NCBI GenBank assembly: GCA_041483195.1
Contig: JBGPFC010000043.1
Location: 1-29,000, forward strand
Length of the DNA stretch: 29,000 nt
From: Candidatus Eiseniibacteriota bacterium
GTDB lineage: Bacteria > Eisenbacteria > RBG-16-71-46
Direction: 5' to 3'
The translations under genes were made by a program, and so were the position numbers. Of this stretch, positions 2,939-10,813 are shown piece after piece. Under the pieces are notes generated by a model, which saw only the letters and a program-made list of their open reading frames with translations, searched no databases and was not told the origin of the DNA. Position 1 is the first letter of the stretch; each line of letters starts with the position of its first letter.

Positions 2939-3687
2939 GGCGCCTTGAATTCGTTCGGCCCGAACTCCTTCACCGTCTCGACCTCGTTCGTGAAGATGTT
3001 CACCTTGTCCTGCCGATGCGCGGTCGGGAACCACAGGCCGTCGTGTTCCTCCCAGCCCTCCCAGGAGTACGTGCGGGGCGGAGGCTGATCGCCCTGCAGC
3101 ACCATGTCCCAGCGCTCGACCCGATGCGTCTTCGAGTTCACGTACACCCAGTAGTGATCGCCCGGCGTGTCGCCCACGTTCTCGAACGAGAGCGCGAGCC
3201 GCTGATAAGCGGTGCCGCTCACGGTCGTGTCGCCCGCCATCGCGAGATGGACCCCGGGGTCGCGGAGCTTGTAGGGCATGAGCATCCAGTAGGTGTCGTT
3301 GATCCAGATCGAGTTCGCGCGCTTCATGAGCTTCTTGAGCGAGTCGCCCTCGATCGTCGTGCCGTTCATCCAGGCCATGCCTTCATCGGTGCCGAGCCTG
3401 TGAATGAAGACGAACTTGTCACCCGCGCGCGTGGTGCCCTCGATGCGGTGCCATCCAGTGCGCCGGTCCCACGCGTGCCGCCGCGCGCTGCGCACGGTGT
3501 CGTTCACCGAGGATCCGAACGTCCAGCGCACGCCGGGGAGCGCGTCCCAGCGCTGCTGGCCGCCGAGCGCCTTCATCACCTGATCGGCGAGGCGCGCCGC
3601 CTTCGGATCCGCGGTGCCGGCGGCGCCGAGCGCCTGGGGGGCGAATCCGAGCAGCAGGACGGCGGCGAGCCAGATGCGGGATTTCAT
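2935..3687 (-). CDS. Secreted conserved hypothetical protein (DUF6503-like)
   Basis: Signal peptide MKSRIWLAAVLLLGFAPQALG; ALGGQQRW and INDTYWMLMPYKLRDPGV...GDTPGDHY pattern. Family assignment is from memory. Confidence 0.7.
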   Translation of the reverse strand: MKSRIWLAAVLLLGFAPQALGAAGTADPKAARLADQVMKALGGQQRWDALPGVRWTFGSSVNDTVRSARRHAWDRRTGWHRIEGTTRAGDKFVFIHRLGTDEGMAWMNGTTIEGDSLKKLMKRANSIWINDTYWMLMPYKLRDPGVHLAMAGDTTVSGTAYQRLALSFENVGDTPGDHYWVYVNSKTHRVERWDMVLQGDQPPPRTYSWEGWEEHDGLWFPTAHRQDKVNIFTNEVETVKEFGPNEFKAP

Positions 3688-3706
3688 GTGGGCACCTCGG
3701 CGCGCG

Positions 3707-4288
3707 TCAGTGCGCGCGCGTGCGCGAGAGATCGAACGTCTTGCCGCAGTTGAAGCACTTCCAATGATAGGTGGGCTGCCCGGCCGGCCAGCTCACGGTG
3801 TCGTTGCGTCCGCAGCCCGGGCACGACATGCGCACGCGCTCGGGATCGGCATGACGGGTTTCGGCGGTCGGTTCGCTCATGGGCTCACGGGATGGATGCA
3901 CGCGGTGGCGATGCTGCGGGACCTCGGCAGTATAGCGACCCGCCAGGATCTCCGCGAGTTTGGTGCTGAACGCGGAGCGCGGCATGACACGATCCACCCC
4001 GGCCGCGAGCGCGGCCTCGCGCAGCGGCTGATCGACGTGCGCGTAAAACCCGACGATCGCGATCGCCCGCGTCGCGGGATCGGATTTCAGCGCGCGCACC
4101 GCGTCGAGCGGGCCGCCCTTGGCGTGCAGGTCGACGATCACCAGGTCCGGTGGCTCCGCGCGGCACGCCTCGAGCGCACCGGTCATGCCGGTCGCGCGCA
4201 GCGTCACGCCCAGCGCCCGCGCGGTGGCGTCGATTCGCGACGCGAAGAAGACATCAGGCACCAGCACGACCACGCGCCGCGGGCTCAT
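3707..4288 (-). CDS. Atypical response-regulator receiver read in frame with a C-terminal CxxC..CxxC Zn ribbon (the Zn ribbon may be a separate ORF, 3707..3880)
   Basis: PDLVIVDL, ALKSDPATRAIAIVGF and AALAAGVDRV receiver pattern; then MSEPTAE...CPGC...WKCFNC. Confidence 0.75.
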   Translation of the reverse strand: MSPRRVVVLVPDVFFASRIDATARALGVTLRATGMTGALEACRAEPPDLVIVDLHAKGGPLDAVRALKSDPATRAIAIVGFYAHVDQPLREAALAAGVDRVMPRSAFSTKLAEILAGRYTAEVPQHRHRVHPSREPMSEPTAETRHADPERVRMSCPGCGRNDTVSWPAGQPTYHWKCFNCGKTFDLSRTRAH

Positions 4289-6251: not shown

Positions 6252-7865
6252 TTAGCAAGAGTATTCACGGCCCGCGATACGCCGGATCACGGCCCGGATG
6301 GGCAGTGCCGCGAGAGCCAACGCTGCCCCTGCCGGCACCCAGATCGACAATCCTTCGGACCCGCCGGCGGCGCCCGGGCCGGGCCCCGCCGCCGCGAACA
6401 TCCATAGTCCCGCCTGCAAGATCATGAGCCCCGCGGCGATGAGCCGGCCATTCAGGGTGAGCATCGCGCGCGGATTGGTCCATCCCGGGTCGGCGAAGGT
6501 CGCACCCACCCACAGGCCGACCGCGACCGAGAGGCCGAGCGCCGAGCCGGCCGTGAGGGCGGCCGTCCCCCATTGGCCGGCGGTGAGCCCGCCCGAGAGC
6601 CCGAGCGAGAGGGCCGCGATCGTCACGAGCGGGAGCGCAAGCAAGGTCGCGCCCGCGAAGCGCGCGAGGACCCAGCTCCCGGGTGCGACGGGCGCGAGCC
6701 TCATCCACGCCTCGCCCCGCCGCTCGATCGGAAACGCGCGCGCCGCGATCTCGTAGCCCATCCCGACCGCGAGCGTGGTGAGCATGGCGCGCACCAGTCG
6801 AGGCGGCGGCATCGAGTGGAGTGCCGCGCCCGCCAGCGGAAGCAGCGTCCACAGCAGCGCGGCGGTGATCACGTCGGCGAGCACCGTCCAGTCGCGCGCG
6901 AACAACTTGATGTCGCGTGCGAGCGCCACCCCCACCAGCCCCGCGCGCCGCGATGTCGCCCCGGGTCGTGCGCGCGCTCCCCGGGTCGGCCCCCGCGCGG
7001 CGGGGGTGCGCACCGCGGCCAGGACCGAGTCGAGGTGCCGCCCGGCGCGCCACGCGGCGAGCCCCGCGGCGGCGAGCGCCATCGTGACCAGCGCGCCGCC
7101 CGCGCGCAGCGTCGAGCCCAGGTCGCCTTCGCGCGCGCCATCGAGCGCCGCGGCCGCCCAGCTCGCGGGCGAGAGCGCGAGCATGAGGGGCTTCGATGCG
7201 CTCCACGCGCGCAATGGGGCGAGCGCGTCGCCGGTCTCGGTGACGAATCGCGGCAGCACGATCAGGTTCGCGAGCCACAGCGCGGTCACGGTGAGAGTCG
7301 AGAGCAGGCCGAGCGCCTCGCGCGCGCGATGCGCGGGCGCGAGCCTCAGCAGCTCGATCGCGATCGCCAGCCCGAGCGCGAGCGGAACGATCCACAGGCA
7401 CGCGAGGGCCGGCGGGACGAGCAGCCACGCCCAGGCCGGGAGCGGCCGCACCGTGCTCCACGCCAGGACGGCGGGCAGCGCGAGCACGATCAGCGGGCCG
7501 GCGGTGCGCGGCAGCGCGTCCGCGAGCTTGATCGCGAACATGCGGCGCGGCGCGATCGGCGCGCGACGGAGCAGATCGAGGTCGCGATCGAGGAGCAGCG
7601 TCGCCAGCGCGCCCTCGAGATCGAAGGCGAGCAGCGCGACGAGGGCCGCGCCGAGCGCGAGCGCCAGCAGCCCGGCGAGCTCACGCGGCGACGCGCCGCT
7701 CCGATCGAGCGCGCGGAACAGCGCGGCGAGCCCGGCTCCCACGACGCCCGCGAGCGCGAACACGAGCAAGGCGCCCGCCGCCGTCCGCAGCGCGGCGCCG
7801 CGGCGGCCGAAGAGCGCGGCGCGCGCCAGCCGCGCGCGAGCGAGCAGGACGCCGCGCGCGATCAG
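6252..7865 (-). CDS. Putative ABC exporter permease (multi-TM)
   Basis: Many hydrophobic segments; DRDLDLLRRAPI, RDIKLFARD and FPIERRG motifs; directly downstream of an ABC ATPase; start uncertain (CTG at 7865 overlaps the ATPase stop). Confidence 0.8.
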   Translation of the reverse strand: MIARGVLLARARLARAALFGRRGAALRTAAGALLVFALAGVVGAGLAALFRALDRSGASPRELAGLLALALGAALVALLAFDLEGALATLLLDRDLDLLRRAPIAPRRMFAIKLADALPRTAGPLIVLALPAVLAWSTVRPLPAWAWLLVPPALACLWIVPLALGLAIAIELLRLAPAHRAREALGLLSTLTVTALWLANLIVLPRFVTETGDALAPLRAWSASKPLMLALSPASWAAAALDGAREGDLGSTLRAGGALVTMALAAAGLAAWRAGRHLDSVLAAVRTPAARGPTRGARARPGATSRRAGLVGVALARDIKLFARDWTVLADVITAALLWTLLPLAGAALHSMPPPRLVRAMLTTLAVGMGYEIAARAFPIERRGEAWMRLAPVAPGSWVLARFAGATLLALPLVTIAALSLGLSGGLTAGQWGTAALTAGSALGLSVAVGLWVGATFADPGWTNPRAMLTLNGRLIAAGLMILQAGLWMFAAAGPGPGAAGGSEGLSIWVPAGAALALAALPIRAVIRRIAGREYSC

Positions 7866-8604
7866 GGCGCGGCCCCGGCGCCGCCCGTGAGCTCGAGGAA
7901 CACGTCTTCGAGCGTCGCGGAGCCGCGCCCGCCGCGCAGCGCATCGAGCGTGCCTTCGGCGAGCTTGCGGCCGTGGTGCAGGATCGCGACGCGATCGCAC
8001 AATCGCTCGGCGACCTCGAGCAGGTGCGTCGAGATCAGCACGCCGAGGCCGCGTGCCGCGCGCTCGCGCAGCAGATCCTTGAGGGCGCGCGCGGCGCGCG
8101 GATCGAGGCCGGAGAGCGGCTCGTCGAGCATGACCAGCGGAGGATCGTGCAGCAGCGCGGCGGCGACCGACACCTTCTGCCGCGTGCCGCGCGAGCAGCC
8201 CTCGAGCAGCCGGTCGGCGGGTTCCAGCTCGAGGCGCTCGCACAGCTCGTCCGCGCGTCGCGCGGCGAGCTCGCGCGGGACGTCGTAGAGCGCCGCGATG
8301 AACTCGAGGAATTCGCGGGCGGTTAGCAGCTCGTAGAGGCAGGGCTCGTCGGGAACGAACCCATTGCGGCACGGGCCGCGAGCGGCCGCGTGGCGAGCGG
8401 CTCCCCCGCGATCACGACCCGGCCCCGATCGGGCGCGATCAGCCCCGCGCACATGCGGAGCGTCGTGGTCTTGCCCGCGCCGTTCGGCCCGAGGAATCCC
8501 AGGATCTCCCCCGGGGCCACGACCAGGTCGAGGCCATCCACCGCCGTGACGTTTCCGAAGCGGCGGGTGAGGGCGGAGGCGGCGAGCGGGGGCGGAGCGG
8601 TCAT
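7862..8604 (-). pseudogene. ABC transporter ATP-binding protein with a 1-nt deletion frameshift at ~8361 (pseudogene or sequencing error)
   Basis: Walker A GPNGAGKT lies in ORF 8323..8604; FVPDEP, signature-like SRGTRQK, Walker B VMLDEP and the STH motif lie in another frame ending at 7862. Junction reads atg-gg-ttc-gtt-ccc. Confidence 0.88.
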
Positions 8605-8780
8605 GGGTGATCCCGGGGTGAAGCGGGCAGTCTAACAGCCGCACCGCGCTCCGCGCTCCGCAGGAAATGCGGAATTCGCGCGCGATCCGCATCACGAGCG
8701 CCGCGTTCGGCGCGCGGGCGCGGCGTGCGAGGCCCGCAGCTGGCGCGGAGTTCGAGCGCATCGTGCCGTCGAGTCGTGCG

Positions 8781-8797
8781 CTGGCACATCGGCTGCA
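8781..8797 (+). promoter_or_regulatory. sigma54 (RpoN) promoter
   Basis: CTGGCACATCGGCTGCA against consensus YTGGCACGNNNNTTGCW: GG-N10-GC spacing exact, 2 mismatches; predicted +1 near 8808. Confidence 0.7.
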
Positions 8798-8807
8798 TTC
8801 GTCACGC

Positions 8808-8970
8808 GTGACTTCGCGGCGCACGCGCGGGGTCTCGAGTCCGCGATCGCCTTCGAACGGGGACCGCGCCGCAAGGCCGGAAGGATTTGAAGGTGGGTCG
8901 CGGGCTCGAGATCTCACGCGGGCCGTCCGCGAGCGCGGAGCGCGGCCGGGACTCGCAGCCCCCGGCCGCA
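8808..8970 (+). ncRNA. Putative structured non-coding RNA: long hairpin with GCAA tetraloop plus 3' hairpins
   Basis: 8829-8857 pairs with 8886-8915 (29 bp, 6 G-U pairs, one bulged G); inner ccg-c-gcc-GCAA-ggc-cgg; outer pairing extends to ~8813/8933; further hairpin 8942-8969. Confidence 0.6.
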
Positions 8971-9025
8971 CCGCGCGGATCGAACCGGGCCCGCGGGTCG
9001 CCGCCGCGCGGGCGAAACGCGGCGC

Positions 9026-10813
<1,788 letters not shown>

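Follow-up and report, generated by a model that had tools for sequence, protein, structure and literature searches.

A conserved hairpin RNA with a predicted sigma-54 promoter and enhancer beside the gene of a GAF-domain activator in uncultured Candidatus Eisenbacteria

INTRODUCTION

Between the start of an ABC transporter ATPase gene (8604, minus strand) and the end of a sigma-54 activator gene (9026, minus strand), a contig of Candidatus Eisenbacteria carries an intergenic stretch (8605-9025) in which a preliminary description, made from the bare sequence, had placed a sigma-54-dependent structured RNA. The question raised by this locus is whether the stretch holds an RNA gene of its own and, if so, what controls the gene and how its product might act. 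The DNA analyzed, here called the window, comprises 29,000 nt (~75% G+C) of contig C43 of a genome of 4.17 Mb in 93 contigs that is 96.8% complete (the source genome, G000; its copy of the RNA, the window copy, is labeled W). To our knowledge, Candidatus Eisenbacteria have no cultured member. A literature search for small RNAs or sigma-54 (RpoN) regulons of Eisenbacteria found none, and only work on CsrA came up. Small RNAs that depend on sigma-54 and lie beside the gene of their activator are already known, for example Qrr (PMC4878744) and CrcZ (PMC8871633 and PMC6296734). Comparative sequence analysis indicates that the present locus very likely encodes a hairpin-shaped small RNA, not described before, from bacteria of sediments and soils that have yet to be cultured.

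RESULTS

A long hairpin on the plus strand

The minimum-free-energy fold of 8800-8975 (+) reproduced the proposed core stem, in which 8829-8857 pairs with 8886-8915. Its 29 pairs comprised 23 Watson-Crick and six G-U pairs (four GU and two UG), with a single bulge at 8895 and no other non-Watson-Crick pair. The fold also contained the apex GCC-GCAA-GGC, flanked by CGGGGA and AAGGA, and the further hairpin past the main stem, both as first described (Table 1). The sequence of the second hairpin was kept in the closest relative only (G003), with the same stem and a different loop. The fold of the plus strand had an energy of -114.4 kcal/mol (z = -5.4), which none of 200 shuffles equaled, versus -99.5 kcal/mol (z = -2.6; equaled by 2 of 200 shuffles) for the minus strand.

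Table 1. Features of the RNA locus and loci of the basic protein (positions refer to the window unless a locus is named)
Feature	Position	Strand	Basis or remark
ABC transporter ATPase	7862..8604	-	divergent from RNA gene; 1-base frameshift splits the ORF in the window assembly
Palindromic upstream activator site (predicted), TCCGCA-GGAAA-TGCGGA	8657..8673	.	~125 bp upstream of -24
Third TCCGCA half-site	8686..8691	.	~-97
Sigma-54 type -24/-12 promoter, TGGCAC-ATCGG-CTGCA	8782..8797	+	predicted +1 near 8808
Long RNA hairpin	8813-8933	+	fold including outer stem; conserved core 8825-8920
Apical module	8859..8885	+	purine-rich internal loop (GGGGA / AAGGA), 6-pair helix, GCAA tetraloop
Terminal G+C-rich hairpin, probable 3' end	8934..8975	+	fold; without U tail in the source genome
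GAF + AAA+ sigma-54 enhancer-binding protein, 595 aa	9026..10813	-	convergent on RNA gene; probable activator
Basic-protein loci	L072:1234-1374(+); L076 (three tandem copies); L070, L069, L080, L081, L074; G003:C165 (L105)

The absence of a credible ORF downstream of the promoter, as originally claimed, was borne out by the homologues: a coding reading of the core was rejected, as none of the three plus-strand frames was open through the conserved core in all 21 of them. Neither a sigma-70 promoter consensus nor an intrinsic-terminator consensus was found in a scan of 8500-9150. The stretch from 8556 to 9100 was identical in contigs of four DNA runs, which come from the same sample type and lend no independent support.

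Homologues, copy number, and Rfam status

A BLAST search of the source genome returned, besides the locus itself, a lone 51-nt match of 77% identity, and BLAST against 41 relatives returned a single true homologue, in G003 of the same genus (80% identity over 8814-8975), the remaining matches being short and G+C rich. A covariance model built from W and the G003 copy (R1, starting at 8806) was run on 89 genomes of the family and matched in 10 of them, the source genome included. In addition, a pattern search with the apex retrieved seven loci from public genome contigs, all in genomes already found (titled Candidatus Eisenbacteria in four cases, "uncultured bacterium" in two, and Ca. Limnocylindria in one), and 12 loci from metagenomes, one of which was a shortened duplicate, leaving 11 distinct contigs. 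A second model, R2, built from 21 sequences, matched the window at 8825-8920 with 80 bits. Among 151 genomes sampled across the phylum, its matches were confined to the family itself (8 of 59 genomes, plus the source genome), with none in 91 genomes of 16 other families. At 12 activator loci that lacked the RNA, R2 run with filters off returned generic hairpins only (≤27 bits), and a scan of these 12 activator-bearing genomes in full added one copy, in G095, which brought the RNA to 11 of the 89 family genomes. Scans of more than 40 genomes, including all those that lacked the activator, used the stricter filters of Infernal, so weak copies may have been missed there. The element was single-copy per genome, by BLAST in its own genome and by covariance models elsewhere, which speaks against the dispersed MITE- or REP-like repeat that had been named as a possible refutation.

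The window had no match at gathering score to any family of Rfam 15, including Qrr, GlmY/GlmZ, CrcZ, 6S, and SRP, as the claim of novelty had required. At E ≤ 10, only miRNA-hairpin models matched (≤29 bits, versus thresholds of 50 to 104), and these matches reflect a long hairpin and no more. Eight homologous loci had no Rfam 15 match at E ≤ 1. SRP RNA had been suspected from a resemblance to its GGAAGGA and was rejected: the SRP RNA of the genome lies on contig C44, and no SRP model matched at the hairpin.

Covariation and strand asymmetry

An alignment of 21 sequences (A3), all of them kin and not independent and 11 of them retrieved by the apex pattern, had strong covariation, and the stem was conserved at orthologous loci, as the first description had predicted. 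RNAalifold placed 32 pairs in it, 19 of which had compensatory double changes. The fraction of alignment cells that were paired was 94.0%, versus 84.4% in shuffles, and the covariation score was 0.399, versus 0.209 in shuffles, none of which (0 of 500) reached the observed value. In a control with the partners slid by 1 to 3 columns, 33 to 51% of the cells were paired. The strand-specific tolerance of G-U pairs that had been read from the window alone recurred across the alignment, with 81 G-U or U-G cells versus 12 A-C or C-A cells among 672. The locus contains a conserved plus-strand RNA structure, predicted to fold into a long covarying stem.

Within this stem, the segment UCCGCG / CGCGG(G/A) (8843-8848 and 8899-8904) was nearly invariant, and the neighboring pairs covaried. 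The segment agrees at five of six positions with the half-sites of the predicted enhancer, TCCGCA/TGCGGA; this may be a chance resemblance in a G+C-rich genome, or the same DNA-binding domain may recognize both.

That resemblance, the position of the element between the activator gene and an ABC operon of the same direction, and the fold of the minus strand (z = -2.6) would fit an element acting as DNA, whether as a protein-binding palindrome, a minus-strand terminator of the activator gene, or a REP/MITE-like repeat. Such a role appears extremely improbable, however, given the excess of G-U over A-C cells, the R2 scores of 72 to 103 bits on the plus strand versus 37 bits on the minus strand, the single copy per genome, the sigma-54 promoter on the same strand in every copy, and the invariant apical loops, which would be pointless in a terminator.

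A nearly invariant apical module

The consensus of the apical module, GGGG-R-CYG-Y-GCC-GNRA-GGC-CRG-N-AGG, was nearly invariant; GGGG, C, G, GCCG, GGCC, G, and AGG were the same in 21 of 21 sequences. A GNRA-type tetraloop was present in 19 of 21, and the CYG/CRG pair covaried (UA in 14, UG in 4, and CG in 2). Among the 11 rows fetched by the apex pattern, invariance of the apex is partly circular; the rows found by covariance model agreed with the module, except those of G001 and G100, whose tetraloop differs. The flanks of the hairpin were not conserved, and no conserved linear unstructured region was found outside it.

The consensus kink-turn consists of a helix, a 3-nt bulge, and tandem G-A/A-G pairs. 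A kink-turn pattern (GA before CYG and CGG-AAG-GA after it) fit 6 of the 21 sequences, including the window copy, and 14 had GG and GC at the tandem positions.

The preliminary description had suggested a protein-titrating RNA on account of its GGA motifs, and the window copy indeed has AAGGA and GGGGA in its loop. Furthermore, the genome has a CsrA gene (PF02599, 91.4 bits, contig C2; an ORF of 84 aa), so that titration of CsrA/RsmA could be envisaged. The alignment did not support this reading: of the 21 sequences, 6 have AGGA and 14 have AGGC in the 3' loop, and the 5' loop is GGGGA in 8 of them and GGGGG in 13, so a loop GGA is found in only 6 to 8 of 21. There is also a single conserved hairpin here, versus the many GGA hairpins of CsrB/RsmZ-type RNAs. 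Because the GGA is not conserved, titration of CsrA is very unlikely even though CsrA exists. In one study, Eisenbacteria are described as having low frequencies of CsrA homologues that the model of that study predicts to be functional (PMC13443453).

A conserved sigma-54 type promoter and a phased candidate enhancer

The near-consensus sigma-54 promoter of the first description, TGGCACATCGGCTGCA, was found at 8782-8797 (+), with its GG at 8783-8784 and its GC at 8795-8796; the usual -24/-12 spacing yields the start point listed in Table 1. The pattern TGGCAC-N5-YTGC occurred once in the 29-kb window versus an expected 0.11 times, but the match alone is not significant, since 11 of 100 shuffles also reached one match. 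Its conservation at orthologous loci, which had been predicted, was complete: all 21 aligned copies had GGCA(C/T)-N6-TGC 66 to 93 nt upstream of the apex and on its strand, and so did G095. Neither the promoter nor the enhancer had been included in a retrieval query, since model R1 begins at 8806 and the pattern search used the apex alone. The genome encodes RpoN (PF04552, 213.6 bits, contig C41; an open frame of 485 aa) and contains 148 loose sigma-54-like sites.

Upstream sequence sufficed in 20 copies, and in 11 of these a palindrome, TCCGCA-N5-TGCGGA, was phased with the promoter (TCCGCA at -124 to -129 and TGCGGA at -113 to -118). A further six of the 20 had at least one half-site, and three (M44, M45, and M49) had none within 200 nt. 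The exact palindrome occurred once in the 4.17-Mb genome, at the RNA locus. In addition, a third TCCGCA, at -94 to -99, was present in W, G003, G010, G063, M40, M41, M42, and M48.

The neighboring activator gene

The claim that the neighbor is a convergent GAF-sigma-54 activator was confirmed by Pfam matches to PF00158 (4e-67), GAF_3, and AAA_lid_14 and by a GAFTGA motif. The C-terminal 140 aa of the protein (9029-9448, minus strand) had no match to Pfam HTH_8 and ended in a conserved 12-residue motif that every orthologue has; the region that binds DNA may therefore be atypical.

With these C-terminal 140 aa as the probe, the activator was single-copy in 22 of the 89 family genomes. The RNA was present in 11 of these 22 genomes versus none of the 67 genomes without the activator. 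A composite of palindrome, N100-115, and promoter occurred as 20 units in 12 of the 89 genomes, all 12 of which bear the activator, and a reversed-pattern control for the composite had no match in the 89 genomes. The order divergent ABC ATPase, RNA, and convergent activator was found in W, G001, G010, G012, G017, G063, L041, L047, and L051. The early proposal that the neighboring activator drives the RNA is therefore supported by adjacency at nine loci, by the phased and unique palindrome, by phyletic nesting, and by restriction of the composite to activator-bearing genomes, all of which predict the regulation from genome comparison. The predicted sigma-54 promoter and enhancer are conserved and tied to the GAF activator.

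A divergent ABC ATPase gene lay upstream of the RNA at 13 homologous loci. In G019, the activator and ABC ATPase genes are directly adjacent, and against this arrangement the RNA cassette looks like an insert between them. In G010 (L037, ~3100-3960), some 850 bp of lower G+C content with no credible ORF lie between the RNA and the activator gene, and in L051, a secreted-protein gene is inserted in the same place. In the window, Pfam placed the N terminus of ABC_tran in the frame 8323..8604 and its C terminus in that of 7862..8971. Two public runs yielded contigs with an extra C after 8359 (together with T>C at 8365); by frame arithmetic, this C would fuse the two frames into one. The contig of a third public run equals the window sequence around 8359. 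The frameshift (8323-8372, near 8359) stems either from an error (assembly or homopolymer) or from a real polymorphism.

A probable stand-alone transcript

Hairpins with T-rich tails followed the RNA on its own strand in G063, G007, M48, and M51 and, by eye, also in G017, G012, and M46. The 3' extensions of the RNA were not conserved, and in some copies long ones preceded the terminator. An RNA that stands alone is indicated by the absence of a conserved ORF over the core, by a downstream gene that is usually convergent, and by the terminators with T-rich tails in several copies.

In one clade, a gene of the HlyD family lies 3' of the RNA on the same strand (L035 of G018, 3251-4165; L044, 1342-2280; and L050, 356-1324), and L044 also has a weak peptidase-M50 match 3' of the RNA. 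Given these genes, and a lipoprotein-like ORF downstream on the same strand in G003, a leader role is conceivable in G018, L044, L050, and G003. As a general reading, a cis-acting 5' leader (riboswitch-like or an attenuator) of a downstream operon, orphaned in the source genome, seems most unlikely, as the next gene is the convergent activator at no fewer than nine loci, the downstream genes are mutually unrelated, terminators directly follow the RNA in G007 and M46, and covariation is kept among copies without a downstream gene. Convergent neighbors, strand asymmetry, and single copy together disfavor the leader, terminator, and repeat readings.

We therefore regard positions ~8808-8975 (+) as a probable stand-alone structured small-RNA gene of ~170 nt, whose conserved core is a hairpin of ~100 nt, in an activator-driven sigma-54 circuit, and assign this reading a probability of roughly 0.8. 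The hairpin RNA very likely represents a new RNA family that depends on sigma-54 and the activator.

Other cargoes of the same cassette

The 20 units of enhancer and promoter pointed to the RNA in seven cases, to a Lys/Arg-rich protein of 41 to 51 aa in 12, and to a secreted protein in one. Two of the 12 basic-protein units were cut by contig ends, and some were in tandem arrays. The basic protein (MAAKKT..RAKATKK..) is preceded by a strong Shine-Dalgarno site, AGGAGG, and its gene is followed by a T-tailed terminator; the gene is usually convergent on the activator gene and reaches up to six copies per genome (G097). The protein had no Pfam match, its sole NCBIfam row was at E = 1.2, and its best match in the Atlas (0.75) was an unnamed cluster. 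A homologue in the source genome was not found by tblastn, motif scan, or profile.

Among the 22 activator-bearing genomes, eight, including the source genome, had the RNA only, three (G003, G018, and G100) had both RNA and basic protein, six had the basic protein only, and five had neither cargo detected. In G018, a single contig has the RNA and, 5.5 kb away, the basic-protein cassette, with the activator gene next to them.

Arginine-rich peptides bind hairpins such as boxB or RRE. The use of one cassette type for both products and the presence of both genes in three genomes could suggest that the RNA is the partner or stand-in of the coregulated basic protein, which would bind the purine-rich loop in a small RNP. 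We consider this improbable, as the eight genomes with the RNA only have no detected basic protein and six others have the protein without the RNA. More broadly, the GAF sigma-54 activator might have a swappable "cargo slot" that holds the structured RNA, tandem basic micro-proteins, or both, either as physical partners (an arginine-rich-peptide/RNA-hairpin RNP like N-boxB) or as equivalents that share a target; this idea is speculative and rather doubtful.

Two further genomes had other sequences at the site. In G005 (L084, ~1165-1490), the slot between the palindrome and the activator stop codon contains TGGCCC-N5-TTGC and then ~220 nt that are related neither to the hairpin nor to the basic protein and end in a strong T-run terminator; this sequence may represent a third type of cargo, again a small RNA. 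In G002 (L087, ~830-1320), a palindrome ~100 nt from the activator stop codon, in the opposite orientation, points to GGCAC-N5-TTGA and then to a small ORF of ~88 aa with a signal-peptide-like N terminus.

DISCUSSION

Proposed circuit

The predicted parts of the locus can be arranged in a sequence of steps. The enhancer-binding protein would sense a signal through its GAF domain and would bind the palindrome at 8657-8673, as conservation, phasing, and phyletic linkage suggest. By the established mechanism of such activators, it would then open the sigma-54 promoter through ATP hydrolysis. The transcript, judging by covariation, would fold into the long stem and present the invariant apical module. 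No output of the activator other than the RNA is predicted in the source genome. In a last step, the RNA may act in trans through the apical module.

How the RNA might act

The apical loops and one helix segment account for most of the conservation, the flanks are variable, and no Hfq was found in the source genome, which is 96.8% complete. We therefore tentatively favor specific protein binding, as a decoy or a scaffold, over a linear seed of the Hfq type as the most likely mode of action, at somewhat less than even odds. Of the features of an Hfq-dependent seed RNA, neither Hfq nor a conserved unstructured flank was found, and the window copy has no U tail, although some relatives do.

As the main alternative, the same sigma-54-driven RNA could act by Hfq-independent base pairing, in which either the tetraloop or the exposed purine-rich strands of the loop, AGGGGR and NAGGMAG, would bind target mRNAs at stretches rich in pyrimidines. 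The conserved single-stranded purine runs of the loop would suit this role, as would the long nonconserved 3' extensions before the terminator in some copies, and most characterized sigma-54-dependent small RNAs, for example Qrr, pair with their targets. We nevertheless rate base pairing as unlikely, if still worth weighing, because no linear unstructured region is conserved outside the hairpin, Hfq was not found in the source genome, and, in a genome of 75% G+C, seeds of five to seven purines lack the length and rarity needed to nominate targets.

Relation to known systems

Protein binding has a precedent among sigma-54-dependent RNAs encoded beside their activators, of which GlmY and Pxr are further examples. 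GlmY of the Enterobacteriaceae has a sigma-54 promoter, activated by the adjacently encoded GlrR of GlrK/GlrR (QseE/QseF), and a sigma-70 promoter as well, and it acts by binding the protein RapZ rather than by a seed. The present RNA resembles GlmY in its sigma-54 promoter and in the adjacent gene of an enhancer-binding protein, both known here from sequence; it differs in structure and has no sequence or Rfam similarity to GlmY. Furthermore, GlrR, which is among the NCBIfam models, is a two-component response regulator, whereas the activator described here has a GAF sensor domain.

Qrr1-5 of Vibrio, which work with LuxO, form several short hairpins and use Hfq-dependent seed pairing; qrr1 adjoins luxO. 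The predicted dependence on sigma-54 and an activator, and the location near the activator gene, are shared, whereas the present RNA forms one long hairpin in a genome in which Hfq was not found. CrcZ and CrcY of Pseudomonas, which work with CbrB, are protein sponges encoded, like the present RNA, beside the gene of the activator on which they depend; CrcZ has repeated A-rich Hfq/Crc motifs, in contrast to the single conserved G-rich purine loop, without repeats, found here. Pxr of Myxococcus, encoded beside nla19, has a sigma-54 type promoter and three stem-loops in a high-G+C host. The present RNA also has a sigma-54 type promoter and a neighboring sigma-54 activator gene in a high-G+C bacterium, but it belongs to a different phylum and has no similarity to any Rfam model. 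What is new here is an RNA family in an uncultured phylum, its different architecture, and an unusual slot for RNA or micro-protein cargo.

Significance

The finding supplies an RNA family backed by covariation and not represented in Rfam, together with a complete predicted circuit composed of a GAF sensor-activator, a palindromic enhancer, a sigma-54 promoter, and the RNA. All of these parts are small enough to be rebuilt in Escherichia coli, so the pair of RNA and basic protein offers a direct route to the functions of both. Whereas the RNA is the sole predicted target of the activator in the source genome, the same cassette drives a basic micro-protein in related genomes; if the cargo slot is real, RNA and peptide would be interchangeable effectors of a single regulon.
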